Positions 45,437 to 64,000 of a stretch of DNA of 64,000 nucleotides are shown one piece after another. The translations under genes and the position numbers were made by a program. Source of the DNA: Piedraia hortae CBS 480.64 (taxonomy: Eukaryota). Positions within the stretch are counted from its first letter, which is position 1; every line of letters starts with the position of its first letter. The notes beneath the pieces are model-generated. The model ran no database searches. It saw only the letters and a program-made list of their open reading frames with translations, and was not told the origin of the DNA. The DNA is taken from NCBI GenBank assembly GCA_010093745.1, contig MU006005.1, positions 5,934 to 69,933 on the forward strand. The letters run 5' to 3'.

Positions 45437-46082
45437 GTCTAGGTAAGATAGGAATTTAGGATACCAATGTCTTGATCATCTAGCGCACTGCCATGCGGTC
45501 AATTTGAGCGATGTCCACTGGAGTCATCACTGCTTTTTAGCAGTTCTTTTCCAGGTCTTGGCAGTTCTCCTTAGCTCTCCTTAGCTTTCCTTTATTTCCA
45601 TTCTCAAGTACACGGTCCCGATTACTCGGCAGAGAGCTCCACGCATCATCCAAACTTCGGCGGTACTATAATCCCGAACGTATCGGTTACTAGCGATTAT
45701 CTGCAAGATATCTATTACGCACAAATATCGACGTCTTGGCATTTTGGGCTTAGGTACACCACCGTAACCTTTGTTAGCACAAAGCAGTCGTTGTTGGAGA
45801 ATCGGAAAAAGACAAACTGGGATGATCTGGAATACAGCTCACAGCAACACATCGGCCATGCTGTTCCCTCGCGACCCTTTGTCCCCGACAAAACCCTGTC
45901 TAGTAGGAGGTCGAGGTTGGGTAATGTGTTAACAATGAACAATCTCATTGGAAACATGGTCTTTTTGTTCGGCTATGTTTTTCGGAAGTCACACAAAGAG
46001 CAAGATATATATCTTTCGACTGCCGCCTTTTTCTTCGTCAATATCGGCACTCACATCACAGCTCTCCCCTCATCCTACTGCA

Positions 46083-48029
46083 ATGGCACATAATTTCAAC
46101 TTAAATACAGGGCAGGATTCCACTTTCGACTTCTCTCAGGAAACGTTCGACTTCACCCAAGAGCAGACCTCTCTTTCTTCAGATGACCTGACCGCATTTA
46201 GCGGCCGGTTAGGCCAGAAAAGCGCACCAGCTCACCCAAACAACGGTCTACAGCCTCCAGCCTACACTAGGCCTTTTTTGATGCCTCGAACTCAAAAATC
46301 CCCGATGTTCATGCCTTTAGGACAATACTCGACACCACAGCTTGTGTTCACTGGAGGGACTTGCCCAACAGGCGAGCCAATCTTCAATTCAGTACCTCAG
46401 CCCACATTCTCTGGGGGCACTTGTCCGACGAGCGTGCCAACCATGCACCCGACCCCTCAGCCCGTGTTCTACGGTGGATTTTACTCGGCCGCTCGGCCGG
46501 GGTCCCATGCCAGCAATTGTCTAACTCTACAGCCTCAAGCTTTCCAAGCCCCATTTCAGGTGCCCCATTTCCAGACACACCCGGGCTTTGCACTGGATCC
46601 GCAGCTTATGGAACCTGGCCCGGTTGCATCAGAAGGCACAACTGAAAGCAAGCGTTCAGAGCCAGTTGAGTGCATTTGTGGATCTGGTACTGACAAGACT
46701 CGAGTTAAACGACCGCGAAACGCATTCATCTTCTTCCGCATTGCAAAGGCCCAGGACATCCAACGCCAGCTGAAAGCGCAGGGTCTGACCGGAGCTCTCA
46801 ACCAGAAAGTGTCCATGATCGCTGGAGAGATGTGGCATAATGCCTCCGAGAGTGAGAAGCAACATTACAATGACAAAGCGGCTGAGGAAAAAGCCCGCCA
46901 CGCTGCTGAGAACCCGGGATACAAGTATCAACCACGTAAGGCCGGTGGACCCAGGAACGAAAAATTTGGTACCCCCTTCTGCACTTGTGGGGTTTATGAG
47001 GCGAATGTACAGCGTGCTTCTCAGGCGGGGAATCATTCCATTCCTGTTCCCGCGATTCAGGTACCAGTGTCGACGGCTTCAGTGCCATTGGTTGCGTCGA
47101 AATCCAGGGCTCTGATCGGCGCGTCCGTTGAGAATCTAACTGCATTTGCTGATTCGAACACTCTTTTTTCTATGGAAGACCTCTTCCCATCACCACCACA
47201 GCCGGTTCAGTTTCAGCAGAACGCCTATCCTCAGCAGAACGTCTGTTCTCAGCAAAGCGTTCTTCAGCAAAACGCCGATTCTCAGCAGAGCGTTCCTCAA
47301 TGGGACGCCTTCTCCGACCCTGCGAGCCTGTTTACTGAGCAGACAGTTCTTCCCAACCCTGGGAACTTCCTTCCTGAGCAGAACGGAAGCTTACATCCAC
47401 AGCAAGTTAACACCAACGCAACTATGGACCCCAACGTAACTGCTGCTTTCGACCTCCTTTCGATAGACGACTGGACATTTGGCGACCTTTCAGCACTAGA
47501 CGAACCTCTCGACATCGAAACTCCAGAGACCGAAGTTCCGATAATCACCTTCCCGAAGCCAAAGCAAAATGGTGCCCCAGCGCAGACTGCTGAGCCTGCC
47601 GTACTTCAATCAAAGCTCGCTCTCCCACAATATAACCCCGCCCTCCTCAAATTTACCGTTCCTTCATCTAGTGACCCCTCCAGCTTGTCGAGTGCTTCAC
47701 CCGGAGCGGAACTCATCAATACGGATCATTTCAACCTCGACCACTTCATCATTGACCCTGAGGATGAAACAACAGACTCCCTCTTTAATGATGATACAGA
47801 TCCTCTATTCGGTTCCTTACCCCCTACAACTCCCCAACTACCGGCTTCTGGCCCGCCCTCGTCGCCCAATGTGTCTATTGTGACTGTACAGGGGATGAAT
47901 AGAGACTTTGAAGTCCAAGCTGCGGGCCCGTGGAGGAGGGCGTCCCTTGAGATCAGTTCCCGGGATGGGATTGCCGGGAAGAGAAAGTTTGAGGAGGAAG
48001 AAGGGGTAACGAAGAGGGTGAAGGTGTGA
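46083..48029 (+). CDS. MATA_HMG-type HMG-box transcription factor (intronless)
   Basis: RVKRPRNAFIFFR...VSMIAGEMWHN...HAAENPGYKYQPRK. First in-frame ATG at 46083; acidic C-terminal half and terminal bipartite NLS-like KRK..KRVK. Confidence 0.85.
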   Translation: MAHNFNLNTGQDSTFDFSQETFDFTQEQTSLSSDDLTAFSGRLGQKSAPAHPNNGLQPPAYTRPFLMPRTQKSPMFMPLGQYSTPQLVFTGGTCPTGEPIFNSVPQPTFSGGTCPTSVPTMHPTPQPVFYGGFYSAARPGSHASNCLTLQPQAFQAPFQVPHFQTHPGFALDPQLMEPGPVASEGTTESKRSEPVECICGSGTDKTRVKRPRNAFIFFRIAKAQDIQRQLKAQGLTGALNQKVSMIAGEMWHNASESEKQHYNDKAAEEKARHAAENPGYKYQPRKAGGPRNEKFGTPFCTCGVYEANVQRASQAGNHSIPVPAIQVPVSTASVPLVASKSRALIGASVENLTAFADSNTLFSMEDLFPSPPQPVQFQQNAYPQQNVCSQQSVLQQNADSQQSVPQWDAFSDPASLFTEQTVLPNPGNFLPEQNGSLHPQQVNTNATMDPNVTAAFDLLSIDDWTFGDLSALDEPLDIETPETEVPIITFPKPKQNGAPAQTAEPAVLQSKLALPQYNPALLKFTVPSSSDPSSLSSASPGAELINTDHFNLDHFIIDPEDETTDSLFNDDTDPLFGSLPPTTPQLPASGPPSSPNVSIVTVQGMNRDFEVQAAGPWRRASLEISSRDGIAGKRKFEEEEGVTKRVKV

Positions 48030-48625
48030 TAGGATAGGCTGTTGCTAGGATGTTCCGAGTGAACTCTTTACTCTGGTCCATGGACAACATATTTGAAAGT
48101 GTGCTACTTTCCTGCGCGTTTCACTGATGGAAACAGGTGATTATATACTACTCGCACTGTAACTCCTCATGCTGCATGACTCAATGATCGCGTTTCACAG
48201 GGAATATCAACGATGTATGATGGAGTGAAAAGTAAACAATTTCGTAAATGAGTTCGGGTGCTTTTTAGTCCACAAATTATCATGGTAACGTCGTCGAGAG
48301 TACTGGTCAATTCTTTTCTCCCCCAAGGGAGGGAGGAGGCTGCTCCGCTTGTTGCCACTCAGCAGCCATTCCAGGATGTTTAGCTGAGTGTGAGACAACT
48401 GAAAGGCATTTGGGAGTCGGTGAATGGTGGCACTAGATGGACGACATGAGAACGGGTGCTTACAATGGCGGCGGTGTTTGACTGGTGTCATAAATGATAG
48501 ACGAATGGCGCTACGTAGAGCCAAAATAGAAAGCAATTTTTGTGAGGGAGGCGACTTATTCTGTGCTATTTTGGCGTTCATTATGAATTCACAAGATGGC
48601 ACAATGTTATGTGATAGAAGATTGA

Positions 48626-49437
48626 TGATGATGATGATTGTTTTTACGCCAGGGCGGAAACGGCCGCGTACGACCGCTTGCAGCCTCCCCAAGGGCATGA
48701 GGCGTGCTAGTCTAGGCACTCTATTACAGAACATGTTCGGCTTAGCCAGCAGATCGAACCCCGTGGTGTTGCACGTATGTCGTTTGCATAATGCTTCCGC
48801 CACTTGGGGAGTACGCGATTTTACGCCCGAGGGCAGATGTCCCGGTGAAACCGAATGTTACGCACGAAGACGATGTCCTTTGGCTGCCGTATTGGCTGCG
48901 CAAAATATCGCTCTCTCTCTCCCTCATTCGATGGTTTCCATGGGCCTTGCCAAAGCCGCTGCCACGCTCTCCAGTGATCAATGGCCCGCCGGCAGTGGAC
49001 AAGGTGGTCGGATGTTTTCGGTCGCCCGCAGCTATAGTTGAGAGCGGCATCCTCATGGCGAAATCGGCGATGGTATGTCGCGAAGTCACCGTTCCCAGTG
49101 CGCATCGCGAGTAACCGGTGCAATACGGGTCGCTCAAGATGCAACGACTCGAATCCCCGGGCATGTGCGACTTCCGATAGTCTCTAGCCAGCTTAGGCTG
49201 AATCACTCTCCAGTGTTGGGTTATCTGGTCGTGGAGCAGGCTCTTGGTCTGTGCCTTGATGCTCGCTGCCGTTGGACCGGCCTCCTCGTCACGAGGGCCT
49301 TTGCAGCCGCCCTTAGCTAGGCCGTCGGCAAGGTCGTTACCAGGTATGCCGGAGTGTCCCGGGCACCATTTCACCCTCACACCGTACAGCATGGCTTTCT
49401 GGTGAAACTTGTGGAACGCCCAACGTGATTGCACTGA
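48626..49437 (-). mobile_element. 5'-truncated, frameshifted LINE (Tad1-like non-LTR retrotransposon)
   Basis: RNase H end (KWCPGHSGIPGNDLADGLAK), Cys/His finger region (RTGNGDFATYHRRF..CG..H..HC) and (ATC)n tail. 12-bp TSD ATAGAAGATTGA at 48614-48625 and 49438-49449. Confidence 0.92.
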
Positions 49438-50020
49438 ATAGAAGATTGACGACGACTTTACACGGATGTTCGAGAGCTAAACCGAAGAGAAGCATGCGCC
49501 ACACGCCAATTGAGTGTTGCCCCGCATTCGCCAAGATCACACCACAGCGCCCAGGAAATCGGCGATCTTCCTTAGGCTCTACCTTACCATACACTGCATG
49601 CCGGCGTTCTGCGTCCGGCAATGGCACAGCCTGTTATCCATTGCATATCCTCACTGTAAGCTGGCCGTCTGAGATATGACGACATAACCCTAACAAGGAA
49701 GGCATATAAGACGAGTGGACAGCAGTATTCATTATCTCTTGTTGTGAAAATGCGGTATATTACGCGCATTATTAGTAACCGGCGCTCGGCTCTCGACTTC
49801 ACGCGTCAACTAGTTTTCCGTAGAGATTTGTATGCAGGTACACATCTACTTACAATCATAATATCTTTCTCTAGCATTCATCATCTTTCTCTTATCTTCT
49901 TTTCACCTCATTTTCACCGCACCATCATTCACCCGATCTCTCCATCATCTTGGTCCATCCACTCTCTCATCTCGTCTTGTTCTATGGTGCCCCTAAGCCA
50001 CCACTATCGGTGATTCCAGC

Positions 50021-50213
50021 TGATAAAACGTGAGGTATGGTCCGTAGATTGCATTCTGGGGGGCTATCCGCCTATATAGGGAAACCCGGAAGAACAGACA
50101 AGCTTTGTCTTTATTTGTTTGTCAGACAAGCAGAGTAGATACCTTGTATCGCCACAACATCATTCTTGCCAGACCTGACGGCATCCCGGGGAATTCCCCA
50201 TAATCTTTTAACA
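50021..50213. mobile_element. Solo-LTR-like repeat, copy 1 (193 bp)
   Basis: TG..CA ends with imperfect terminal inverted repeat (TGATAAAA/TTTTAACA) and internal TATATA. Ungapped match to 58427-58619 with 15 mismatches counted by eye. Flanks CCAGC / TTTTT. Confidence 0.88.
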
Positions 50214-50407
50214 TTTTTATCATCGCGCAGCTGTGACCGGTCCGTCAGATTATGGCCTGCCTTCGGCGTCGTGTAAGCACGATTCAAGCCTGTGAGCCCG
50301 TGATTCAGGTCGAATAACATTGATTCCTCAAATGAAGGGCGCCTGCAGTGAGATCTTCTATGAGGGAGAGAGCTCCTCAGGAGAAAGAGAGAGAAAAAAA
50401 TAACCAA
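50214..50407 (-). pseudogene. 5' half of a decayed ORF split by the LTR rearrangement
   Basis: Frame ...TDRSQLRDDK joins in frame through the shared AAAAA to KNLIDLLIDTSK... at 58426. Confidence 0.45.
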
Positions 50408-51854
50408 GTCGATGTCTCCGATCTACTGGGGATCGGTCCCTATCTACTTGAAAGCATAAGGTAGGATGCCTACATCGCATCGGCGGACGAATCGTGGGGG
50501 AGACAAGGATGTCCCTGCCATCCATGTTATAGGCTCCGACAGGAACCGTCCTATCTTCCAGCGGATATCAAGACAAGCCGCCTCAATGAGGCTTTATAGC
50601 GAGGTGGAGGCAGATATCTTGACTATGCCCCAGTACGATTATTCATGAAACTAATTGTCGAGCTGCGGAGACTACTGTCCGCCGTCCAGCACAATGAGTT
50701 GGGCGTGTTAGGTGGGCTTAGTCTGCACTTGGTCTTCAGATCTTAAGACGAAGGTGTTATCTGTTGAAAGACAGTTATTGCGTAGCGTAATCGTTCTGAA
50801 GATTGAGTTTTTAACAAAGTTTTATTTTCTGATGTTCAGCAGCGAACTTATGTACAAGTAGCTTCTTTGTTCAGACAGTCTCAAATATCACTCCATTGCC
50901 CCACTGTCCTCTTTATTATGCTCTTTGAGAATTTTGCTATACAGGATTTATCTTTGTATAGTCTTTATTATCAGGCCAAGGTATGGCACTGATACTTCTC
51001 AACAACAACATCATCATGGCACTGAATGACACTACTAGAAAGTCACATGATGCGGCTCACCTAGTGGATGCAACCAGCCCTGTTTCGCCTATAACTTCAC
51101 AACAAAAGACCCTCCTCAATCAGCACTCTGACAGTATGAAGTATTCTCCGATAACGCTGAATAGAATGAACATATATCGCATCGCATATGCAGAGCTGGA
51201 AAAGATCATTCGAAAAGAAGGCGTTTGACCGACTGCGGACCTGTTCCGTCTTGCTTTGTAAGCTGTTATGTGTGTGTATTCTGTTTCACGATGAGGACGT
51301 GTAAAAGCGTACACATAAGGATGATAAATTCTGTTGAAACAGGTCCGCAATGCCTCAAGCCACTTTTTTCTTATTGATCCCCTTCAACGCTTCGTATGCG
51401 GTGTGATGAAATCCTATTCGGCGCTATCAGGGGTACCTTTTGTACTGTCAAATTTTTGATTGATGGTTTTGTTGTGAAGTTATGGACAAAAAAAGGGTTA
51501 GTTGCATCGACTAGGTGGGCCCCAACATAGAACCGAGTTGTGTTAATGAGGCGATTCTCGCTATAATGGCAACGGCAATGTTACACAAGTGTGTCATGCT
51601 GCAGAGTAAACCTCTTGTCTGTTTCGGATACCCAGCCGTCATCTGAGTAGTCTAGCCAGAGCATTCTCGTGTGCCAGTCTCGACGGCATATTGCATCCGC
51701 TCCGTTCATCTGCCCCAAACGATTGTATTCACACACGTCATCGGATGGTTTAATGCATGCACGCCATTAATACCCCGCCTCACCAGACCTCAGCCTTGTG
51801 CCAGCCGGTACCTTCTCCAGTTTCCTTTTCTCACCACCTTCCATCGTGTACAGC

Positions 51855-54800
51855 ATGCCGGAGTGGGTTAGACGCTTGAAAGCGAAGGGAAAGTCGCATA
51901 TATCACGTCAACAAGCTTCCACTATACAGCCTCCCCAGCCCGTGCAGCAGCACAATTTGTCTGTCCCAACTTCAGCTTTAGTACTGGCAACGCGAAACCC
52001 ATTTGAAGACAAGGGCAAGTTACTACGCGATGCCATTGAAAAGCTTCCCGCCGAAGATCGTCAGTTCGTTCAAGATCAACTGGGGTCCAGCAGCAATGTC
52101 GAGAGGGACGCGGCCAGAGTCGAGACCTCAAGAGGCCAAAACCAAACTAAAAAGCCCAATCAATGGATTGTGAGCATGAGGAAGATCGCTTGTCAGATTA
52201 TGCAACTTGCGCCGGTATTTGATGTTGCGACAAATGCCCAAGCGGAAGTGCTAAGCATGCCATGGGCCGGCATTCGCTCTCTCTTGATGGTAAGCAGCAA
52301 TGCTGTGCAACTGCGACCCTGAATAACACCATTTCTCTAGGTGGCTCAGAAAACTCAAGAGCAAAGTGACTCGGTCCTGAAAGGAATCGAAACGGTGCTG
52401 GACACAGGCCACCTTCTGAATGGATATTTTGACATCTATAGCCAGCTTGCTGCGACGCCCGCAATTGGCCATTTGTATGACAACATCGTCAAGCTCTACG
52501 GCCTCAATTTGACGTTCGTAGCGCACGCACAGCACACATGTGACATGAAAAGTGTGGAACGTACTATACAATCCTTGACTGGTGAGGTTATACCAAAGTT
52601 CAAAGAAAGTCACGATAGGATGCTGAAAACCGTTGAATCCCATTGTCAAGTTGTGAACGAAGAGGTCTCTCAGGAGCAGCGGGCATGGGTCAATGAGCAG
52701 CTTAAGGCATTGAGGAAGGCTCAGGAGGAAGTCAATGAGAGAGTCAAGGGCGTTCAACAAACGCTAGATCTTAGTGCTCTTCAGGTAGCTGATTGGGCAG
52801 CTTACAACTCGATAAACAATCGTAGTGCCGACGATATTGGCGAGCTGAAGCTTTGTCTGGACGGTACCCGGGAGCAGATCAGAGAGAAGATCCTGGACTG
52901 GGCCACCACCGCAAGCGACCAAAGAGTGTTCTGGCTGTCTGGGAAGGCCGGAACGGGCAAGTCCACAATTGCTCGAACCGTTGCCGATGAACTTGCGAAG
53001 CAAGGGTATCTGGTGGGAAGCTTCTTCTTCAAGCGTGGGCAAGGTGAGTTGGGCCGCGCTCGCAGTCTGTTTCCCACCATTGCCCGCCAAATGGCAGACT
53101 TTGTACCCAGCATCAGCCACGAGATTGCTGCCGCCTCCAAAGGCTCCCCTCCGGTGAATGAAAGGCCGCTGACAACTCAGTTCGACACGCTTATCAAAGG
53201 ACCGCTGTCAGGGTACAGTACGGGTTCCGCGATAGATATCAGGGCCATTGTCATCGATGCTCTTGACGAGTGCGAGGACTGGGGAGCGATAAGCCATGCA
53301 ATGACTCTTTGGCCAAAACTTCGTGCACAAAGCTCCATGAACCTACGAGTTTTTGTGACGAGCCGGTCCGACAATAACATCGACAATGCGCTCGCCAAGA
53401 TGGAGAGCAAGGATCTCCAGCACGAGAGGCTTGAAGAATGGCAATCGAGCACTATCGAGCATGACCTGAGGTTGTTCTGTTACGATGAGCTGAGGAAGCT
53501 CCGCGAGCAGAGCAGAAACGACTATGATGAGCTCGATGATGGCTGGCCAGGGGAAAGCGTTGTCGACAAACTTGTGGAAATATCAAAGCCACTGTTCATT
53601 GCAGCCTCCACAATATTCCGCGAAGTAAGCAAAGATCCACGAGGGCAACTTGAGGAATGGGTGGGCCGGCTCAACTTCACTGGCTCGAAAGGGCTCAACT
53701 GCATTTATTCAGACATTCTCGAGCAAGCTGCTAAAGTTGACCAAGCTGCTGTTGACCAAGAGTGGCTCGACCAATTCAACCAAATCATCAAGCCATTCGC
53801 CCTTCTCCATTCTTCTCTCACCATCTCGGCACTTACGGATCTTTTGGGAGGGAAAATTACGACGGTTGGTAATGCTCTCAAGCCCTTGAGTTCCGTAATC
53901 GAGTTTCCAAGTGGCAAGGAGTTCAAAGCGGGCTCACGGGCTAAGGTACGGATTTATCATGAATCCTTCCGAGACTTCCTCATAGATCCCAGTCATAAGA
54001 GCAGACCTCAGTTCTGGGTTAACGAAGGCGAGACCCACGGCATTCTCCTAACGAGATGTTTAGATTTGCTCAAGAACAAGCTCGATCGTGACGTGCGTAA
54101 GCAGAAAGATCCAGCAACGGAACGCAAAGGTGTGTCCGCCGAGGATGTCGAGAAGCACATCCCAGAGTCCGTACAGTATGCCTGCCGCTACTGGACCAGC
54201 CATGCAGTCAAAAGCAATAAGACACTTGAAGGTGGCGGAAAAGTAGATCGTTTCCTACGCGCATGTCTCCTTCATTGGACAGAAGCAATGGCCTGGCTGA
54301 ACAAGCTCGGGGAAATGATAATATGCCTAAAGCAGCTGCAAAAAGCCATCGACGTATGTATTGCTTCTGTTTCTGTCCGCCGAAAGTATGCCTAACGCTG
54401 CGCAGTCACAATCATCGCCCAAGCTACACGCCTTTGTCGCCGATGCTCTGAGATGGGTCCCAGCAAATCGAAAGATGATTAGCGATAGACCACTTCAGAC
54501 ATATCTCTCAGCACTGGCTTTTGCGCCGAGTAACAGTATTGTACGAAACAGCTTCAGAAGTGAGATGGAAGATTCCTTGCAGGTTTGGCCGTCAGTCGCG
54601 AGTGATTGGGGCTTTGAGTTGCAAACGCTGAGGGGGCATAGTCATGAAATACTGTCGATAACGCCTTCGAGCGACGGGAGACTGCTGGTCACCATTGCCA
54701 AGGACAAGACAGTGCGACTATGGGATGTTGAAAGCGGCACCGAAGAAAAACGTATGGAACTTAACTCGTCAGATGAGTATGTTCACATCGCTGCTTCAGC

Positions 54801-56487
54801 GTTTCCTGGAAAAGACGTTGTGGCCATTGCCGGGCCGTCCGGAGATTATTGGAGGTGGAACCTGGAAGACGACGTAAAACAAGTTAGCCGAACGCTGCCC
54901 GGGGTTGCAAAAAGCGTTTCCGTCTCTCCGAACGGTCGATATGCCGCTTGGGGCCTAAACACTGGTCAAATCTACATCTGGGACGCCGACAACAACGCCG
55001 AACAGGTGGTTGAGGGTCACAGCTCTTCAGTGTGGTGCATGGCGTTCTCGTCAGATAGTGAGGCACTGGTGTCGGGATCCAGAGACATCTGGAAGTGGAG
55101 CGTACAAGCTGGGCCTGAAAAACTATGCCAAGTCGGTACTGGTATCGAGCGCATCGCCATTTCGCCAAATGGCAAGTTCGTTGCCTTTGGGTCTAGTTGT
55201 GACACGATATCGTTGTTTCACTGCACCACCCACGAAGTTGAGCAAATCATGCAAGAAGGAGCCGAAATATATAGCCGCGATTTTGTCATGGTTACGCCAG
55301 ACAGCCAGAAACTTTTGATTTGTGACGGGTTTAGTCTTTATGTCTACGACTTTCAAACGCAACGGGAGCCGATGAAACTGCGATTAAGAATCGATATCAC
55401 AGCCTTGACACCATCGCCCGACGGGAAGACAATCTGGGCGGGGCATTTGGGTGGACGAATTACACAGCTGGACGTGGATTCAATCTTGAAGAGCCCGCAG
55501 CATAGGCCTGGCGACAATAAAGTCGCACTGTCAACGGATGGACTGTCACTCGCCTCATTTTCTGAACCAAACCAGCTCAGCCTTTGGAACATTGAAACGC
55601 GAATTTGCGAACGGCGGTTAACAGATGAGAGGCTTTCGAAAATCTCTCGCTTCTGGATCCTGATCTCTTCGGACAGTCGTTTCGTGGTTGTTGTGTGCAC
55701 AAGCCCTGACTCGGAAGACGCGGTTTTGATTTGGGACTTGGATACAGATGAACTGAGAGAGTTGGAAGACAGACCAGACTATGTTACTGCTCTTACGTTG
55801 TCCGCAGACAACAAAACACTCCTTTGCGGTTTGCGCGACGGTCAGATATGGGCTATTGATCTGGAACGTGGAGATCTGCGAGGAAAATTCACGGGTCATA
55901 CGGAAAAAATCTGCGATGTAGCGATTTCTCCAGATGGGCAGAACTTTGCATCGGCATCAGACGATAAGACAATAAGGATCTGGGGACCGGAGTCACAAAG
56001 CCCGCTGGTACTGAGCTCTGAAGTAGAAATGTATGAGGCATGTTTCTCAGCAGACGGTCGGATGCTCTACACTTGCAACAACTTTGGAATATGTGAATGG
56101 GACATTGAAAAGGTGTGCACTGTGCGCACACTCGATCCGGGCAGTTATGGTGGTTCGATACTTATCGATGGTCGCTTTGTGCCGTCAAGGTTTCTGCCTG
56201 TTGTGGACAGGTTAGTAGCCAACGAAGCCGTCCAGCCCCAAACGCAGGCGCACTCTTCCGCCTCATCAGAGTCCATTTCGGTGTTCGAAGGCCGACAAAT
56301 CTGGACCTTGGACCGTACAAGATATAGTAGAACAAATGGGTGGATCACCGTCAATGGTCGGAAGATCCTTAAGCTCCCTGACCAGCTGCCACCACCTGAC
56401 TGGTTCTCGTGCGGGCGAACGATGATTTTCCCCAACGATAAGACTGGTTTTACTGTTTTATATTTTACGGGCAAAGTCGCCTTCTGA
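51855..56487 (+). CDS. Fungal NLR: helical N-terminal domain - NACHT - WD40 (HET-E-like architecture)
   Basis: N-domain motif (LSMPWAGIRSLL), CLDGTR, Walker A GKAGTGKST, Walker B IVIDALDEC, HESFRDFL and YACRYW, then WD40 repeats. Introns 52290-52340 and ~54354-54404. The frame appears intact. Confidence 0.93.
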
Positions 56488-57133
56488 ATGAAACTGAATT
56501 TGTTCAAATATCCAACGGTCCCGATTCCTTTACTGAGCGATACAGTCGGTCCGTGCCGCTACATTGTAGCTTCTTCTTGAACCTGCCGTAAATGTTTCCA
56601 TAGGGAAAACCAATGCAATTCACGATATGGTCATCGCCGCCAGGCCATATGAGGAAGGGCCTTGTTAAGTTCCTTTAAAGGCAGATGCCAGTCCTCGGCC
56701 GTGTCGTGCCATGGATGACTCCACGCTCCGTTGTGGAGTTGGGTGCGCCGGGATTCCATGTGCATTTCCCATGATCGGCATCTGCGCAAGAACTTGGAGG
56801 GTTTTATGGTCATGTGTTTTGGCTGAAATTCTGAAGGGAAGCACTGTGGGTGTGCGTGGACCTAGGTCCGAGCATAGAAGCTACAGAGAGCCAGAGGGGG
56901 TGCTATAGACTTATGGGCTCCTGCACAGGGGCGCCTTGTCCATATAGCGCGAGCGTACGCGGTACGCGAGCGCCTAATGAACCACGCCCATGGAACAACT
57001 ATGGGACGAAAGGGCTAACCCGTAACAGAAATTTAACTTCTAATCGCCAGGCAGTTTCCGAAACCTTGATTGGTGGAGCTGGGACATGTGTCTCTTAGGG
57101 GAGTGTTAAATCAAAGCTCTACGGACGAGGATA

Positions 57134-57453
57134 CAGTCAACCTGGTTATAGTGGACTACTTGGCGCGAAAATTGTGTCCGCTGTTGTGCAGATCGCCACG
57201 GAGCGACCCGCAGGTGATGACCCATATCCCTGACCAGGGTTCGAGCACTCAGAAAATTTTCTCGTGTAGCTCTAGATACGCGTGTATACTGACACACCTG
57301 TAAGGTGCCGCTGCTTATTAGAACATCCGCTATGTCAAGGATCCGCTGTATCCAGGTACCTATAGGTGAGCGGTGAGAAAATTGGGGGCCCTAAAAATTT
57401 GCTATAAAAAGGCACTTGCTATATTCAGTGTCCGCTATAACCAGGTTCAACTG
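57134..57453. mobile_element. MITE of Tc1/mariner-pogo type (~320 bp)
   Basis: TIRs CAGTC-AACCTGGTTATAGTGGAC and (reverse complement) CAGTTGAACCTGGTTATAGCGGAC, TA on both sides (57132-33, 57454-55) and internal TCCGCT repeats. No transposase. Confidence 0.85.
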
Positions 57454-57865
57454 TACAGAAAATCACGTGGCGTTCGCATGACTAGCCCTTCAACTTTAAT
57501 TGGAAAACCGCTGTGCACGAATGACAGAAGGGCGAACGAATTAATGCGTCTTCCAATGCTATACACGACCTAGGTCTTGACAAACTCGGGTACTCTAGGA
57601 CATTGGGAAACGGGGCTGATGTCAGATCGTGAACATATCAGCGCACCTAATGGGAAAATGGGCACAAAGATGACCTCAGAGACCAGAAAGCACAAAGCGA
57701 TGACATCTACTCGAGGGCGCCTTCTGGCTTGTAAACCGCTGGCTATCCCAAAAGGCGCCATCTCCGACAAAGTTACTGCCCCGGACAAGCACTGCTTCAG
57801 GGGACAAGCAATGCTGCCTCAAAGGGACGGTGCTGTCGGACAGGTACAATGTGAGCAATATTGGT

Positions 57866-58426
57866 TTAGTTGAAGAAATCACCACACATACGACCGTACA
57901 GCGATCGGCCTGAGGGTTGAGCATTACGGCGTGACACCGTTAAACTCTTCAGCCGACTGCAGCATGTCCTCAACGGATTGAAACAGAATCCGTGTTCCGT
58001 GGACTCAAGAAGAAACTTTTCCACCTTTTTCTCTCTATCACTCTTCCTCCCGCAAAGTGCTTGAAGCTTCCTTAAACTTATTTTGAAGGGAGAGAAATGC
58101 CACTCTCCACTCGCGATGTCACACATCAAAGCAGATGTCGTAGAGTTGCGTGATTCGTAGGTACAACAAAAGCACTTGCGGTCCATCGCCACGCTAACAT
58201 ACCACTACCAACAAGATCGTCACATGTATGGATACTACTGCTAGCCAGGGCACTTGTGTAATGACCGGTTCCAGATCTGCACTGACATATCATCTATTGC
58301 GAAACTAGGAATGAAGCAGACACCCCATTTCATTCGCCCCTGCCCTAATCTCAGAAGAATCACATCGCCGTTAGCGCGAGAAAAGGGTATTTTGGAAGTA
58401 TCGATTAACAAATCAATCAAGTTTTT
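57866..58426 (-). pseudogene. 3' half of the decayed ORF split by the LTR rearrangement
   Basis: ORF segments 58426-58241 and 58192-57866 share one frame, separated by several stops. Confidence 0.4.
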
Positions 58427-58619
58427 TGATAAAACGTGAGGTAGGAACCGTATATTGCATTCTGGGAGGCTATCCACCTATATAGGGAAACCCGGAAGAA
58501 CAGACAAACTTTGTCTTTATTTGTTTGTCAAGCAAGCAGAGTAGATACCTTGTATCGCCACGACATCATTCCTGCCAGACCTGACGGCATCCCGGGGCAG
58601 TCCCCATAATATTTAAACA
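58427..58619. mobile_element. Solo-LTR-like repeat, copy 2 (193 bp)
   Basis: Direct repeat of 50021-50213 with TG..CA ends. Flanks TTTTT / CCAGC. Confidence 0.88.
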
Positions 58620-58783
58620 CCAGCTGACTTATACTCGCAAGGATGACATGGACATGATAATCACCTAGCTCGCAGCAACTTCAAGAGCGGGAGGATGACC
58701 AGGCTTGGCATCGACCTACCTTATGACTTTATAAGGCTCCAGCTCTTTGCCCTTCTCGTATCCTTCTTCGCTCCACCATCACG

Positions 58784-59498
58784 ATGAATCTCATCTTGAT
58801 CCTCGTTAGTCTTCTCCTCTTGACCACCAACGCCATTCCTCCCACTCTGATCGCTACGCTTCAGTTCCTCTTGGCTGGCAACGCCAGGCCAATTCACAGG
58901 GCCACACCATCTACTGTCACGCTTCGTTCCATGTCTTCCCTTTTCTCCTTGATAGGGGCCGAACCCTATCAACACCCCTCCATGTAGGGCACGGAGAGCA
59001 TGAAGGGAGGGCCGGTGATGTCTCAGTGTCCGGATTATTCTCCACATCATATCGGCGATTATGAGCGGCAGAGCGCTGCAGAAGGTGGCCTACATCGACA
59101 TCATCGCGCTCTGGGCATAGTTTCGCCGCCTCCAATCTGGCTATCCACGCAAGTGGCGTCGAATGGTCATTGAAGAGGCTGTGGCCCGTTACCCAAACTT
59201 GCGAGAGAGAACTCCTCTGGGGACCACCCTCGACGACAGATTTGCACACATCGTCCAGGCTGTAGAGGAAGGGCCGAACCGCGCGGAGCCCCTTCTGTCG
59301 AGTCTCGACGTACTGGAGAAAATCCTTGCGGCCATCAAGAGGGCCTGTCAGGCCTCCATGGCCTTGATTCGTCTCGCTACCAAAGCCTGCAGCCAGCGGA
59401 CGAGGCGGAGGCGGAGGCGGAGGCGGCGGTATATGCAAGCTACCACGTCGAGCAGGGCGCATAAGCAAACCGCCACACGACAGCCTGAACCAATTTAG
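58784..59498 (+). pseudogene. Decayed gene of unknown family
   Basis: The frame of 59163-59498 extends upstream through one TAG (KVAYIDIIALWA*FRRLQSGYPRKW). A separate hydrophobic ORF lies at 58784. (GAGGCG)n repeat near 59402. Confidence 0.3.
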
Positions 59499-60199
59499 GG
59501 GCTTCGTTCTCTCCACAACCCTTTAGATGTGAATAGCATCATACGGGACCATTGTACATGGTCTTAAATCGAAGATCCAATGTTCCAAATCCTGTCTACA
59601 CGCCGCATCATGTACAATCTGTGATGAAATTTGACGATTGTCTCATATTATGCCTACCTCAGCGCGCACCTCCATCTCCATAACACAATACACGTACCAT
59701 CCAAACACTGTTCCAAAAATCGAAGCCGTTCATCGAGGGTCCCAGTACTCCATAACCATATACAATGCACCGTTCCATCTTTGGTACTAATATTCTGTGG
59801 ACCATGAGTTAGATATTTGATGTTGAGATGATGTACAATTCAAAAAACTGTTAAGCGTGTTTGTATCCCAGTGTGTACCCTCAAGCGTGTTTGTACCATA
59901 AGCATCTTAGTTCCTTTACATTAGAATTCTTCTTGGCTCCACTAACTAATATACTTTATCGACTTGAAAAGCCCCTTTCCCACCTGAGGATTTGGGTTCG
60001 ATCAATGACATGGACAAACTCAATTGGAACTCACAACCACAGCGAACACTGATCAGTGCAACAGCTGCACTTTCCTATTCCCAAACTTTTGAGTTCAGAT
60101 CTGCATCATTCACGACAATAATTCTACGTAGCAGTATCTTACCATCAATGATTTGAAACGCTGAATAATTATCGAGAACACAACTGTTTGATAGCGCCG

Positions 60200-60830
60200 A
60201 ATGGATCTACATTCCCCAACCCAATGGAACGGATCGCTCTGTGTTTCCCATAACGAGGATCCTACTCCCTGATAAGGAGTTTGAGAACACTCTTGGGCGT
60301 TTGGTGGCGTTGATGCGTCTGCGTATAAAGTTTTTGTGCGACCCAGTTCTCGAATTCCACCAATAAGCTAAGGAAACCGTTTTCGTTTGCTTAGTGGCAT
60401 TCTTGCTCTGGAGTTGAAGGGCACACGGTTTACAGGCCTGTTTTCGTACATGCCGGAGCTGAGGATTTTTGACATCGACGATGAATGCTCCGCAGATGAT
60501 CTTGCAGATCTAGGATGGCGCTGGCCGATGCTAGAGGGGTCCCGGGTCTCAATCCATGTCGACATGCGCGATGAAGAAGCTCTGACATTCCAAAAGTTGA
60601 GCAGGCTTGGAATGGTCAATACTCTGCCCAGGGGTCAGCCACACCGTCGGGTGCACACGACAGTAAAACCGAAAAAAAATGATCGCTGAGATGAAGGTGA
60701 GTGTAGGATTAGACTCAGACAAGACGACAATGATGATCGAATTTCTGGGGTTGATGAGAGCGTTTATGACGGACGCATTCATATTATCAAGGGGTTGCAA
60801 ATATTGCTCAGAAAGTTGTAACCCCTACTA
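60200..60830 (+). pseudogene. Decayed Leu-rich ORF (LRR-like relic)
   Basis: Protein-like fragments in shifting frames (LRTLLGRLVALMRLRIKF; LFSYMPELRIFDI). Confidence 0.25.
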
Positions 60831-61010
60831 CTCAACTTTCCCTCACCCCAGATATCCTCGAATCTCCATGCGAGCCCCGATTAACTCTTCCCTCGCTCTC
60901 TATTCATTAGGGAGGGCGAGGGAAGAGATCCCACCGCATATTCCAGCCGTAGCCCCCTTCGACGGGGCTACGAAATCTCAGCCTCCATTTCGCACTTCTC
61001 CCAATGCGGC

Positions 61011-61350
61011 AGACAAGTATCAGAAGCCGCGCAATCTCTTCTCCTTTACGGCATGGTGGCCATACGGTACATGGAGGTGGCTGCCGATCGCCTGTACGTG
61101 CATCTGCTTGAGCTCTTTTTTCATGGTCTGCATGGTGTGATTAGGTGCGTCGACCTCATGGGTTTCGAATGACTCATCCGAGAGCTTGACGTTGAACGGC
61201 TTGTCGTTCGCCTGCCTTTGGTCAGTCACCGCAGCCAAGCCAGGCCGGGGCTACTAACTCGTGGGACTTTGCGCATTGCCGGCGCGTTGCTGGTGCATTG
61301 CTGGCGCAGGATGCGACCTTCATCAGCATGGGCGGAGGTGGTGGAGGACT
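61011..61350 (-). pseudogene. PDA1: Fragment of pyruvate dehydrogenase E1 alpha gene with internal inversion
   Basis: DKPFNVKLSDESFET...KELKQM...KEKRLRGF*YLS. The missing MVAIR.ME.AADRLY segment reads on the opposite strand (61047-61097). Intron 61258-61212 is retained. Confidence 0.9.
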
Positions 61351-61747
61351 GGAGGAGAGCTGTGTGTGACTTTGACCCCAGAAATTGAAAATTGTTCGGA
61401 GGGGTCTAACTTCGGGCCGTTGCGGAGCCCCCGCACGCCCTGCACACCCTGCAGTCGGAATTTTGCTGCCTGTACGATGGCTCGCTATTCTAACCGTATC
61501 AGGATTAACGGGCACGACCTCACTCTGTGATACATCGCTGTTCTTCTAGCGGATGCGTTGTTGCAGGCAAGACATATCACAGACCATGTTAACAATAGAT
61601 GTGAGAAAATGTTTTCTTCCATGTAGTGGCTCACAGTCCAACGCGGATCGTCTCGTTGCAGAAGTGAGGGAAATCGTTTCCTTTCGCGCATATGATAGAT
61701 ACTCACAGATGACTTTGGAGAAACTTTTACATTTTTTTTGTTATCTG

Positions 61748-64000
61748 CTATAAGTTTACGAGACTAACACCACCTTTTGGGGACGAGATTTTTATTCCTC
61801 CATTGGCCGAGCCAGGGCTAGTGACGGTCATGGGGACCTTGAACTCAAATTTCCGCCCTTCAGCAAGGATTTTGTCCTTGGCCTCGTTGAGTTTTTCTTC
61901 AGAATAGCTTTTCCACTTGTGCCAGAGGTGGAGGGCGGCGCGGGCGTCTTCAATGCTGTCGTGGCCGTCGGCTATGTTTTGCTGGATATCCTGTCCCAGC
62001 AGCAGCCAGGCGAGGAAGCGGAGAGAGAGTTTGCGCTGGCTGCGGTGGCCGAGAGAATATAACTCCTGTGTATCAATGACCTGCGAATCTGGAACGTGCA
62101 TGTTGATGGTGCGGAAGTCACTGCTGAGACCGTGGCCGATGAAGCAACAGCCAAGGTTCAGCAGGACCCAGAGCTTTTTGTAGACGTCTTTTAGGCCCAC
62201 GAGCTCGAAAGGGCTACATCCTGGTGTGAGATCACCCGGTCGGAGGCCGGAAAACTGGGTCAGATAGTCATCAATGGGATCTGTGACGGCAATATAGTCG
62301 TCGATGAACGGCACACCGGCATCTGGACCGTCGCCTCGTAGCACAGAAACCCGCGCCAGGCCAGACCGCGCCGGTCGTGTGATTATGCGGGACCCGTCGG
62401 GCCCAACATCAAATTCCTCTCGCAGCAGCCGCACAAATTCGGCATCAATGGCGCAGTGCATGCCCGGCTGCGGGGCTTCGTTCCCCGACAGAGGCCGAAA
62501 CTCGTACGATCCGTCTTCCCGTTCAGGCTGTGCCAGGCTCCTATACAGCACCCCAGTATCGAGATGCGACTTCCACTCCTCATCCAGAACACCGGCCTTG
62601 GACTTGAGCTGGTAAGTGATGACCGACGGCAGCTTCCAGCGGGCATCAAAGTGTAGGGCCTCGTCTGCTGAGACGGGACGGGCGAGGAAATCGTTGATTA
62701 GGTGCCAGTCCGACTCTTGAGCGTTTGGCCGCGTCAAGGCGGCATTGACCAGTGCCACCAAGTGCGACTTCTGACCCTCGCCGACCGTCACATCAGCCAC
62801 AACGCCGACCAGCTCAAACAACATCATGGCTTGGTTTCGGCGCTGCAAGTGCAGATTTAGGTCATCTCCTTCGTAGCAGTAAAACTGGCTGTTGACGTTA
62901 ATAATGCCAATTTCAGCCGGCAGAAAGCCAGGAGTGCTCCATAAATGCCTCGCCTCGGTCGACTGTATGGCGGCATGAACCATGAGAACCTGCGGTGTCG
63001 AATGCACCACGCGGCGAGAGCGGATCATCTTGTAGCCCTGGCAGCGCATGCACCACCCCCGTTGCTGCTCGTGGCGGTGCACCGAGTCCTGGAGGAGGCG
63101 GGCAAAGTTGACGGGATGCATGCGTCCACCGGGTTTGGTCGGCTTTGGGTAGCACAGCTGGTGCGTGTACGAGACGTTTTCCCGCGCATCTTCATAGGCG
63201 CAGTGGACACAGTGGCTGATGATGTGGCTGCGAGTCGCCATGGCTGCCTGCATCTCCACTGGGTTGCTGATGACCTGACAGTAGCCCCATTCGAGCCTCG
63301 TCAGGAGGAAGCGGTTGAGGTTCTGGATCATTGTAGTTTGCGGTGCATGAGAAGACGAATCCTCCAGCATCGGTATCTGTCTCGCACCGGGCTGTCTGGT
63401 GAGGGCTTTGAGAAAGTTTGTGGCCTGGCAGTTTTGGCCTCGAGCCTTTTCCAGCATATCAACCAAGAAGCCGAGCTCACAGAGCAGGCAATTTTCGTAG
63501 CGGCAGTCACAAGCCGCGTGCTTCAGCGCAAGATTGCGAGCAACGTTGGTAAAGCGATAAAGCTGTAGCAGGGCATTTGCATACGAGTTCACTATGTGTG
63601 TTTCCAGGCCCGAATACTGCGTCTTGTTGAAATATCCAAAATCAAAGTCGTTCACTCCAAATCTGCTGTATTTGATCTCAATGGGCTGGTAAAAGGCCAC
63701 GGCGTCTTCGCCAACATCGTCCAGCCGCCATCCATCACCGTCTGTGGCCCCTTTGGGCTGTTCGCTGAGGAATTTAGGAGTGGCAATCGAATTCATCGCC
63801 CGCATCATACTGCGCGTGTCAAAGGCTTCGTACCTCCTTGACGTACGCGGGAACCTGCCTACCAATCCCAGTTCTGCTGGCTGGAGAGTGCTCAGCAAAG
63901 CAGGATCGATCCGTGTGGGCGGTGCCCCAGTCTCGTGAACCATGTCGTTGGACCAGTTCGAGAGCAGTGGCTCCGTATAGTACGGCATGCCTATCAAGTT
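61748..64000 (-). CDS. PAN2: PAN2 poly(A) ribonuclease catalytic subunit (5' part beyond the window)
   Basis: IKYSRFGVNDFDF, inactive UCH-like domain (YSGLETHIVNSYAN) and DEDDh nuclease (AIDAEFV, FIGHGL..DFR, GHDSIEDA). Confidence 0.97.
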   Translation of the reverse strand, partial: NLIGMPYYTEPLLSNWSNDMVHETGAPPTRIDPALLSTLQPAELGLVGRFPRTSRRYEAFDTRSMMRAMNSIATPKFLSEQPKGATDGDGWRLDDVGEDAVAFYQPIEIKYSRFGVNDFDFGYFNKTQYSGLETHIVNSYANALLQLYRFTNVARNLALKHAACDCRYENCLLCELGFLVDMLEKARGQNCQATNFLKALTRQPGARQIPMLEDSSSHAPQTTMIQNLNRFLLTRLEWGYCQVISNPVEMQAAMATRSHIISHCVHCAYEDARENVSYTHQLCYPKPTKPGGRMHPVNFARLLQDSVHRHEQQRGWCMRCQGYKMIRSRRVVHSTPQVLMVHAAIQSTEARHLWSTPGFLPAEIGIINVNSQFYCYEGDDLNLHLQRRNQAMMLFELVGVVADVTVGEGQKSHLVALVNAALTRPNAQESDWHLINDFLARPVSADEALHFDARWKLPSVITYQLKSKAGVLDEEWKSHLDTGVLYRSLAQPEREDGSYEFRPLSGNEAPQPGMHCAIDAEFVRLLREEFDVGPDGSRIITRPARSGLARVSVLRGDGPDAGVPFIDDYIAVTDPIDDYLTQFSGLRPGDLTPGCSPFELVGLKDVYKKLWVLLNLGCCFIGHGLSSDFRTINMHVPDSQVIDTQELYSLGHRSQRKLSLRFLAWLLLGQDIQQNIADGHDSIEDARAALHLWHKWKSYSEEKLNEAKDKILAEGRKFEFKVPMTVTSPGSANGGIKISSPKGGVSLVNL

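Follow-up and report, generated by a model that had tools for sequence, protein, structure and literature searches.

Fungal NLR repertoires turn over fast, and the means by which entire NLR genes come to occupy new places in the chromosomes are mostly a matter of guesswork. In plants, recombination between different LTR retrotransposons is reportedly told by non-matching target duplications, Devos 2002 and Ma 2004 being said to give examples. The yeast eccDNA paper considered below cites a GAP1 circle, reportedly from Gresham et al. 2010. Further parallels are found among yeasts and filamentous fungi. Meiotic drivers of the wtf family reach dispersed repeats that were already in place (5S rDNA and, in S. 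pombe, Tf solo LTRs), and De Carvalho et al. 2022 (PMC9562144) proposed either ectopic gene conversion or the integration of extrachromosomal circles as the route. LTR-mediated eccDNA of yeast consists of circles that arise between solo LTRs or between Ty elements. Moller et al. 2015 (PMC4751563) suggested that a solo LTR in the genome might recombine with an LTR-bearing circle and so relocate it. A 17-kb Zygosaccharomyces bailii segment is amplified in wine yeasts, an eccDNA intermediate having been deduced there from a gene order that is circularly permuted (Galeote et al. 2011, PMC3053389). For fungal NLRs of the NWD/HET-E type, a Podospora study of their association with transposable elements (PMC13449251) suggests that transposons on either side of such genes recombine ectopically.

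We describe here a locus of the hair fungus Piedraia hortae, lying in a 64-kb window (the whole stretch of DNA analysed), as a junction-level example of a gene that was probably relocated. As for wtf, a compact, fast-evolving fungal gene family has members between direct copies of a dispersed repeat and shows paralog mosaicism, arrival at a one-repeat site would have been by non-allelic recombination, and the same two routes are candidates. Unlike wtf, the cargo is an NLR gene and the host a filamentous Dothideomycete. The repeat is moreover an LTR with swapped target duplications, a base-level scar that sets it apart from the wtf account as far as that account is drawn on here; the wtf study undertook to examine synteny with loci of other species that bear one repeat, whereas the P. 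hortae data come from one strain. The yeast eccDNA model shares with the present one a mobile one-LTR circle, a chromosomal solo LTR as landing pad and movement confined to LTR-bearing sites. Reintegration at another LTR was speculation there and the cargo was Ty, whereas here it is the integrated product, with a host gene as cargo, that is observed and the circle that is conjectural.

The Z. bailii segment resembles our case in that a circle is deduced from an inserted copy that permutes one and the same unit. Its integration was non-homologous, with little breakpoint similarity, and a functional ARS was demonstrated, whereas the P. hortae breakpoints lie exactly in a 193-nt repeat. Flanking 5-bp duplications diagnose recombinant LTRs here as they do in plant inter-element recombination. 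In the plant cases the outcome is reportedly a single recombinant element or solo LTR, flanked a...b and accompanied by a deletion. Here, the a...b and the b...a product of a reciprocal exchange are both present, 8.2 kb from each other on the same molecule, and an insertion is therefore needed. In the portion of the Podospora study used here, flanking-transposon recombination is put forward as an idea without a junction-level example, which the P. hortae locus supplies.

The two direct repeats occupy 50021–50213 and 58427–58619 (plus strand). Each is 193 nt long and bounded by TG..CA, and they align without gaps at 178 of 193 positions, confirming the pair of ~92% identical repeats reported in the preliminary description. 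Their longest identical run is 31 nt. The 15 differences consist of 8 transitions and 7 transversions lacking a clear dinucleotide context, and RIP was rejected as their origin. The left copy carries TATATAG at positions 53–59 on the plus strand. Terminal inverted repeats are imperfect (TGATAAAA vs TGTTAAAA or TGTTTAAA): between TGATAAAA... and ...TTTTAACA or ...TTTAAACA, 7 of 8 positions match in the left copy and 6 of 8 in the right. The window holds just these two copies, no other repeats of the 49000–59500 sequence, and no complete element in which such LTRs enclose gag-pol. The family is dispersed nonetheless, as at least 5–7 other contigs overlie the right LTR with different letters at the three sites compared (58467, 58519 and 58532). 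The second of these is LTR position 93, where both the left and right copies have A and six other contigs have G. Sister LTRs of a single insertion would be expected to share a base in this way, and this site speaks against an exchange. An exact 22-nt LTR core gave 0 matches in metagenome contigs. We infer from the termini, 5-bp flanks and dispersal that the repeat is a solo LTR.

Target-site duplications were read directly from the sequence next to each copy. CCAGC stands on the outside (50016–50020 and 58620–58624) and TTTTT on the inside (50214–50218 and 58422–58426), in agreement with the earlier reading. The order is CCAGC-LTR-TTTTT ... TTTTT-LTR-CCAGC, with the flanks reciprocally exchanged: they pair solely crosswise, both times perfectly, and each LTR is without a duplication of its own. 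Chance equality of two random 5-mers within the window has p ~1.1e-3, a value that applies to the inner match too, and both crosswise matches were obtained jointly in 2 of 2,000,000 random placements. TGA, as at the LTR start, directly follows the right CCAGC and extends the common outer string to 8 nt (CCAGCTGA); these three extra bases were treated as chance.

Between the LTRs lies an insert of ~8.2 kb carrying an intact NACHT-WD40 (NLR) gene at 51855–56487 on the plus strand. Its frame opens with an ATG at 51855 and encodes 1509 aa in three exons (51855–52289, 52341–54353 and 54406–56487); the two GT..AG introns (52290–52340 and 54354–54405) are both kept in the DNA. The exon 2 query (671 aa) was 100% identical to an annotated P. 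hortae protein (P0001) of equal total length. A NACHT-type P-loop NTPase is central (NPHP3_N, E 1.2e-29, residues 327–487; NACHT, E 3.6e-7), and WD40 repeats are C-terminal (WD40, E 5.8e-33, with several further propeller families, residues ~870–1390). No Pfam family among the best 25 of 57 fell on residues 1 to ~320, where an N-terminal effector domain (HET, HeLo, Goodbye, lipase etc.) was sought. Tandem Repeats Finder detected no array in the gene, which places it outside the HIC subclass as judged by internal WD40 repeats. It differs from the NWD/HET-E type, as the Podospora study presents it, in WD40 repeats that are not near-identical in DNA and in the lack of a recognised effector domain among those 25 families.

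Contigs skipping both introns at GT..AG were found in run X2 only. X2 was taken as RNA-type solely because these skips occur in it alone, and the RNA label is otherwise a guess. The spliced X2 contigs, at 85% likeness, could perhaps derive from close paralogs, and expression of this NLR copy is putative.

The rest of the insert is non-coding. Region Y (50219–51854, plus strand), 5' of the gene, is common to paralogous loci and matches no protein family; paralog contigs show joints within it at 50737>51013, 50738>51011 and 51037>51775. Nested in Y is a second, genome-dispersed LTR-like element of 246 nt (50762–51007, plus strand, TGTTG..CAACA), marked by loose ends in 14 contigs per side and skipped at the joints in at least two paralogs. 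Regions W and X (56488–58421, plus strand) follow the gene on its 3' side. X, the last ~0.8 kb, is overlaid by contigs worth ~2 further copies (summed depth 37 vs ~13), and a short dispersed repeat at 57182–57325 separates it from W; 12 contigs have loose ends ahead of this repeat and 17 have them after it. Matches to gag, RT, integrase or protease families were absent from three non-NLR ORFs and from 30 ORFs in the flanks and the non-genic parts of the insert, and the combination of an intact NLR gene with no gag/pol, noted earlier, holds. Inspection by eye of both strands revealed no TGG-type primer-binding site beside either LTR, the window offering no tRNA for comparison, and Rfam and tRNA scans of the region gave no match. 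The sole purine-rich polypurine-tract candidate (minus strand, 50214–50230) belongs to Y and is also present in an LTR-less paralog.

Eighteen P. hortae paralogs share 54–77% identity with the gene over exon 2, compared with at most 37% outside the species, and by this sequence measure the family is a species-restricted expansion. The paralogs are mosaic. Residues 1–145 are closest to P0005 (89%) and residues 331–560 to P0003 (89%), and recombination has therefore taken place among family members. None of the 18 listed paralogs is a near-identical donor, the best overall identity being 71%, which fits an excision of the cut-and-paste kind or an old event. Several paralogs lie on contigs that agree in length, at 114412 (P0004, P0012), 331972 (P0006, P0015) and 290750 (P0013, P0016, P0018), and such clusters could plausibly serve as tandem donors. 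The insert is the only member of its NLR family in the window and sits inside a block of housekeeping genes.

The preliminary description had predicted a paralogous locus with permuted order. Two contig joints of the DNA run, 58421>50228 and 58423>50245, bear this out, the insert end continuing into the insert start without an LTR at two or more paralogous loci. Both contigs are at single-copy depth (14.1 and 12.9). The joints are listed without kind or side length, and the same-strand return is our reading, adopted because the first coordinate exceeds the second and the intervening letters are collinear with Y; at 58423>50245 these 26 letters are a diverged copy of 50219–50244, with 19 of 26 matching. 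As two paralogs pass from X to Y with no intervening LTR, the T-run is part of the target and not of the repeat, which argues against TTTTT being a constant part of the repeat family. TTTTT appears to be the target duplication left when an LTR inserted into an uninterrupted spacer. By the same sequence comparison, the segment would amount to a single complete period of a tandem or circular unit, the opening being at the LTR. These joints might also stem from tandem NLR pairs in which X-Y is the ordinary intergenic spacer, in which case a circle would be compatible with the data and not required by them.

The assembly was examined against contigs from two sequencing runs of one organism, both identical to the window where it is unique. 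Exact unitigs inside the insert have word depths of 12.8–13.8, compared with 12.9–13.3 for the unique flanks, and two of them in X (57475–57987 and 57959–58456) are at single depth. The latter enters the right LTR by 30 nt from the X side, and a 50.6-kb contig (58581–63000) begins 39 nt before the end of that LTR. Among the listed unitigs none crosses an entire LTR, nor do the listed pieces include the left LTR junction. Each junction being single-copy, the assembled order is the only linear path. Summed depths of 677–2248 at 49.2–51.0 kb were rejected as a measure of copy number, as exact unitigs there have a depth of ~13. The published assembly was built with AllPaths-LG from 2x150 reads of 270-bp fragments and a 4.5-kb mate-pair library (PMC7082219, supplementary Table 5).

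Taken together, the exchanged flanks and the X-to-Y joints make it probable that the insert arose by homologous exchange of some kind between two LTRs. This supports the exchange earlier suggested between a CCAGC-flanked and a TTTTT-flanked LTR: the two copies look like its reciprocal products, and the X-to-Y joints provide independent backing. The earlier state would have been a solo LTR already in place among the housekeeping genes with its own CCAGC duplication (L-CCAGC-LTR-CCAGC-R). Elsewhere, an LTR of the same family with a TTTTT duplication would have occupied the X|Y spacer of an NLR gene unit. Through pop-out, either from a tandem NLR pair or between repeats on its flanks, that unit could have turned into a circle of ~8.4 kb made up of one LTR, Y, the NLR gene, W and X. 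One homologous crossover, joining the LTR of the circle to the chromosomal solo LTR, would then have inserted the whole circle. Two hybrid direct LTRs with CCAGC outside and TTTTT inside would result, around a gene unit circularly permuted relative to its relatives, and transposase, integrase and reverse transcription would all be unneeded. We hold this circle route tentatively, as a real possibility that falls somewhat short of being probable. The 92% likeness of the LTRs could mean either that the event is old or that diverged partners recombined, an inefficient process. Three further routes, worked through on paper, were set aside because none yields a-LTR-b...b-LTR-a with direct LTRs: inversion between inverted LTRs, tandem duplication in situ, and unequal crossing-over in which both partners are chromosomal solo LTRs.

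An exchange between LTRs could also have proceeded through ectopic gene conversion or a double crossover at a broken solo LTR. The template would be an NLR unit already lying between two LTRs with TTTTT inside, possibly through a tandem duplication that took in the spacer LTR, and the donor would be kept. The final structure, crosswise flanks included, is identical to that of one-LTR circle integration, and the two are indistinguishable here; of the proposal that the gene relocated as an extrachromosomal circle, it is the LTR exchange that is supported, and the circle specifically is a candidate. Conversion or recombination is known from the paralog mosaic to act in the NLR family, the equal-sized contigs holding several paralogs make tandem donor clusters plausible, and the wtf study sets conversion beside circle integration. 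Such a donor must already hold the two-LTR arrangement, however, which is one step less parsimonious. The best of the 18 paralogs, at 71%, is no near-identical donor, which would make the event old or the donor lost, and the relatives with the two LTR-less X-to-Y junctions are not two-LTR donors. We regard conversion as somewhat unlikely. A LARD-like non-autonomous retroelement that captured the NLR gene is a different proposition. Integrase would have inserted it with a CCAGC duplication, leaving the inner TTTTT as part of the element or a coincidence. Two direct TG..CA LTRs, a perfect 5-bp outer duplication, the A shared at position 93 and a minus-strand purine-rich run adjoining the would-be 3' LTR are all as expected of such an element. 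That run is ordinary Y sequence found in an LTR-less paralog, however, gag/pol and a TGG-type primer-binding site beside either LTR are missing, and the inner 5-mer match would carry p ~1e-3. Fixed internal ends do not predict LTR-less X-to-Y passage in two paralogs. The TATA-like motif, moreover, points to LTR transcription on the gene strand; a sense-orientation RNA copy is expected to be intron-less, because both introns are removed in the X2 contigs, yet the two introns are kept. We consider this origin very unlikely.

A misassembly would place a solo LTR at the true site, with the NLR unit elsewhere or episomal and threaded through the repeat by the short-read assembler. The short-read library, the 31-nt identical run and the lack of a listed unitig across the whole LTR would permit this. 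Against it, 15 sites distinguish the LTR copies, and a 270-bp fragment is long enough to cover 193 nt together with flanking sequence; exact unitigs run from X into the LTR and from the LTR into the right flank (R), and all insert unitigs have the single-copy depth of the flanks. The alternative graph walk would therefore need a single-copy free circle, which is the proposed intermediate itself. An artefact of this kind is highly improbable. Two unrelated solo LTRs beside a resident NLR gene, with flank matches due to chance or decayed duplications, would suit a region that collects repeats (the 48.7–49.5 kb remnant, 50762–51007 and 57182–57325). This explanation is scarcely credible: each LTR lacks a duplication of its own, whereas the flanks match perfectly in both crosswise pairings (the 2 in 2,000,000 placements given above), and X-to-Y continuity in paralogs is left unexplained.

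The preferred reading, an exchange between two LTRs, has precedents in the wtf genes and yeast eccDNA, and the route is not new in kind. The broader suggestion that it provides a transposase-free path for NLR expansion has a single locus as its basis, and this kind of route was already proposed for wtf and yeast Ty. What the locus adds is an extension of the repeat-facilitated spread proposed for wtf drivers to immune-type receptors. Hybrid LTRs, swapped 5-bp duplications and an intron-bearing gene in a housekeeping block make a DNA-level, repeat-homology route directly testable, and pairs of the form a-LTR-b ... b-LTR-a offer a simple genome-wide screen. One-LTR circles with whole NLR genes might even be a working vehicle in this fungus, one that leaves tandem NLR pairs by pop-out, lands through homologous crossover wherever a solo LTR of its own LTR family sits, and built much of the ~19-member, species-restricted NLR family, a notion that we think quite improbable. 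If true, 50016–58624 would be the first base-level footprint of LTR hitch-hiking, in the smallest known Dothideomycete genome.

The left flank of the insert contains a further repeat. A decayed ORF on the minus strand (48742–49476), tentatively labelled retroelement-like, weakly matches the C-terminal end of RNase H (Pfam RNase_H, E 1.7e-4, which fails the curated cut-off); no longer homologue of this ORF was found. A joint of 49383 with 58427 on opposite strands links the LTR boundary to a copy of this left-flank repeat. It is ambiguous between another LTR copy within such a repeat copy and an X copy abutting that repeat, and was given no weight. The ORF is repeated elsewhere in the genome, and a contig ~89% alike covers 48871–49314 in both sequencing runs.

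The insert is bounded by two LTR-like direct repeats on the forward strand, at 50021–50213 (left) and 58427–58619 (right), each 193 nt long with a TG start and a CA end. They align without gaps and are identical at 178 of 193 positions, with no stretch of identity longer than 31 nt; of the 15 differences, 8 are transitions and 7 transversions. Both carry an imperfect terminal inverted repeat and a TATA-like TATATAG (+ strand). The left repeat is flanked by CCAGC and then TTTTT, the right repeat by TTTTT and then CCAGC. Taken singly, each copy lacks a duplication, and both crosswise pairs are perfect. In plants, recombinant LTR elements are recognized by non-matching duplications. A pair of 5-mers drawn at random from the window coincides with p ~1.1e-3, and both crosswise matches occurred jointly in 2 of 2,000,000 random placements. 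The string common to the outer sides extends to 8 nt (CCAGCTGA; 50016–50023 and 58620–58627), the TGA behind the right CCAGC being equal to the LTR start. These three extra bases are probably shared by chance (1 in 64), but with them the possible crossover or duplication boundaries can move by up to 3 nt. No third copy of the 193-nt repeat was found within the 64-kb window, and the rest of 49000–59500 showed no repetition elsewhere in it.

The single gene of the insert encodes a NACHT-WD40 protein on the + strand, with its ATG at 51855 and exons at 51855–52289, 52341–54353 and 54406–56487. Its introns (GTAAGC..TAG and GTATGT..CTAAC..CAG) separate exons that together specify 1509 aa. The exon 2 product is 100% identical to P0001, a hypothetical protein of equal length annotated in Piedraia hortae CBS 480.64. 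An NPHP3_N/NACHT NTPase lies at residues ~327–487 and WD40 propellers at ~870–1390; the domain search recognized no N-terminal effector family. Near-identity of the WD40 repeats at the DNA level was not found. The joints 52288>52340 and 54353>54406 (GT..AG), given as window coordinates, match the two predicted introns exactly and occurred in one sequencing run (X2, guessed to be RNA) alone, which indicates that this run contains spliced RNA of this gene or a close paralog.

Outside the gene, the insert consists of 3.6 kb (50219–51854 and 56488–58421), denoted Y upstream of the gene and W followed by X downstream. Family scans of 30 ORFs covered 24 in the insert and 6 in the flanks. Across the non-genic 3.6 kb (3 non-NLR and 24 further ORFs), gag, RT, RNase H, integrase and protease gave no match, nor did Rfam and tRNA scans. 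The preliminary description had reported the two repeats with swapped CCAGC/TTTTT flanks, an intact NACHT-WD40 gene and no gag/pol between them; all of this, coordinates included, was reproduced. Paralog contigs skip the stretches 50738–51012, 51038–51774 and 56847–57181. The first skipped stretch holds a second LTR-like element nested in Y (50762–51007, 246 nt, TGTTG..CAACA), with loose ends of 14 contigs on each side, which is missing from at least two paralog contigs (joints 50737>51013 and 50738>51011). It is unrelated to the 193-nt repeat and is flanked by TTATC and ACATC, two 5-mers that agree at only 3 of 5 positions. Given the loose ends and the skipping contigs, it looks like a later solo-LTR insertion from a more abundant family. 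Between W and X lies a short dispersed repeat of ~144 nt (57182–57325), with 12 contigs having loose ends ahead of it and 17 beyond it. Summed paralog depth falls there from ~220 to ~37, and this repeat could be the closure point of a putative circle or the edge of a duplicated unit.

Run X2 and a putative DNA run, X1, both from one organism, were compared with 45000–63000 at 85% likeness. Exact X1 unitigs inside the insert had word depths of 13.8 (50304–50802), 12.8 (57475–57987) and 12.8 (57959–58456). The unique flanks had 13.2 (45000–49199), 13.3 (49175–49779) and 12.9 (58581–63000), so the insert is present once per genome. The unitig at 57959–58456 runs from X through TTTTT into 30 nt of the right LTR, and a 50.6-kb contig covers the last 39 nt of that LTR and continues across CCAGC to 63000. 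These are among the listed portion of the unitigs; the left junction lies outside that portion. Two further X1 contigs connect the ends of the insert directly: 58421>50228, separated by 11 letters, at depth 14.1, and 58423>50245, separated by 26 letters, at depth 12.9. By manual count, 19 of those 26 letters match 50219–50244. Type and side length are not given for these joints, and their same-strand status is a reading. It is favored by the intervening letters, which are collinear with Y, and by the coordinates, since from exceeds to here and both listed opposite-strand joints have from below to. We read the two contigs as paralogous loci in which X would pass straight into Y without an LTR. 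The summed depth of 37 over 57621–58221 is about three times single copy; summed depth is not equal to copy number, and the value fits two additional copies of X. At LTR positions 41, 93 and 106 (58467, 58519 and 58532), 6–7 other contigs have another letter, pointing to several more copies of the 193-nt repeat.

The continuity from X to Y implies that the T-run is part of an uninterrupted X|Y target instead of the repeat. TTTTT thus acts like a target duplication left by an LTR inserted into an NLR unit's spacer, and CCAGC like that of another LTR at this site among housekeeping genes. The present order is L-CCAGC-LTR-TTTTT-Y-gene-W-X-TTTTT-LTR-CCAGC-R, where L and R are the chromosomal flanks. 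A circle containing one LTR and Y through X would yield this order by one crossover between its LTR and the LTR of a chromosomal CCAGC-LTR-CCAGC. Such integration is LTR–LTR pop-out run exactly backwards. The preliminary description had proposed this origin and predicted a permuted order at paralog loci. The two X-to-Y joints, as read, supply that order, and together with the swapped flanks they support insertion through LTR homology well; the proposal as a whole, circle included, is partly supported. Homologous exchange between LTRs in some form is probable, and a circular intermediate is our tentative choice. Three other processes were worked through: inversion, in-situ tandem duplication, and unequal crossing-over involving two chromosomal solo LTRs. 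Direct LTRs flanked a...b and b...a result from none of them.

The main competitor starts from a donor unit lying between two TTTTT-flanked LTRs and proceeds by ectopic gene conversion or a double crossover; it is the sole process worked out as giving the same product as the circle. It requires a donor already placed between two LTRs, whereas one spacer LTR suffices for the circle, and the two relatives that were seen lack an LTR at X|Y. A retained donor copy is not visible either, a point that carries no information for an old event. On these grounds the circle is ranked slightly higher, and conversion is considered rather unlikely.

An RNA-mediated LTR element that carried the gene is improbable. 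The introns were kept although they are spliced in RNA, neither gag/pol nor a primer-binding site was found, and the paralogs show X-to-Y continuity. The sole LTR-adjacent purine-rich run is plain Y sequence present in an LTR-less paralog. One site speaks for such an element, LTR position 93, where A stands in both the left and the right copy and G in 6 other contigs. Misassembly must be considered because the assembly was built from short reads (supplementary Table 5 of PMC7082219) and none of the listed unitigs spans an LTR. Nevertheless, the LTR copies differ at 15 sites, 270-bp fragments are able to span them, and all junctions have single-copy depth; the only other walk is a single-copy free circle, making this explanation very unlikely. 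Two independent LTRs with chance flanks are hardly credible given how rarely random placement matched both pairs.

Exon 2 matched 18 further P. hortae proteins at 54–77% identity, and proteins from outside P. hortae at no more than 37% over exon 2 among the matches listed. The ~19 NACHT-WD40 paralogs share 46–71% overall identity, in an assembly described as the smallest in Dothideomycetes (16.95 Mb, 7,572 genes; PMC7082219). In a full-length alignment of 19 proteins, residues 1–145 were closest to paralog P0005 (89%), and residues 331–560 to P0003 (89%), P0004 (86%) and P0002 (84%), with P0005 at 74% in that stretch; overall identity to any paralog was at most 71%. The nearest paralog therefore changes between exon 1 and NACHT, indicating that family members recombine or undergo gene conversion. 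None of the 18 paralogs is a near-identical donor copy. The two LTRs differ by 8%, the X and Y flanks show a likeness of at least 85% to those of two paralogs, and identity to the nearest protein is 71%. These distances can be read as an old event after which the gene stayed intact and expressed, or else as a relocation between LTRs that had already diverged, with the donor lost. Several NACHT-WD40 paralogs are found on contigs whose lengths are equal, and clusters are thus possible.

Gene relocation mediated by repeats, through circle integration or ectopic conversion, is already known. Circles form between LTRs in yeast (Møller et al. 2015). For wtf genes, spread to 5S rDNA copies already in place was proposed to occur by integration of circles or by ectopic gene conversion, and an association of the S. 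pombe wtf genes with solo LTRs was noted (De Carvalho et al. 2022, PMC9562144). An inserted segment that was circularly permuted and had non-homologous junctions led to the deduction of a circular intermediate (Galeote et al. 2011, PMC3053389). In Podospora, some of the NLRs are associated with TEs and, on occasion, moved, and duplication through flanking TEs recombining ectopically was suggested (2026, PMC13449251). The Magnaporthe circularome includes eccDNA carrying LTR elements and genes (PMC9694575). A limited search of titles and abstract openings found no description of an NLR gene enclosed by hybrid LTRs whose duplications are swapped; the present locus stands out by its clean double scar and its NLR cargo.

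The window is a housekeeping block containing Sec3, Dbf4, a class II tRNA synthetase, PEPCK, an HMG-box gene ending at 48029 and a PAN2-like UCH gene starting at 61748. Directly left of the insert, an ORF at 48742–49476 (− strand) has a sub-threshold RNase H end match (E 1.7e-4) and gave no match in a search among longer proteins. A second genomic copy is ~89% alike, and both copies occur in the RNA-type run; judged from its sequence, the ORF is possibly a retroelement remnant, perhaps 5'-truncated. In each run, one contig links 49383 with 58427, the two lying on opposite strands. It represents either a further LTR inserted into a copy of the left-flank repeat or else X in another copy, ending at the same T-run and adjoining that repeat. 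Right of the insert, at 59935–61688 (− strand), a 1707-nt contig of the RNA-type run omits 61211–61257 (47 nt), indicating a spliced gene without Pfam annotation.
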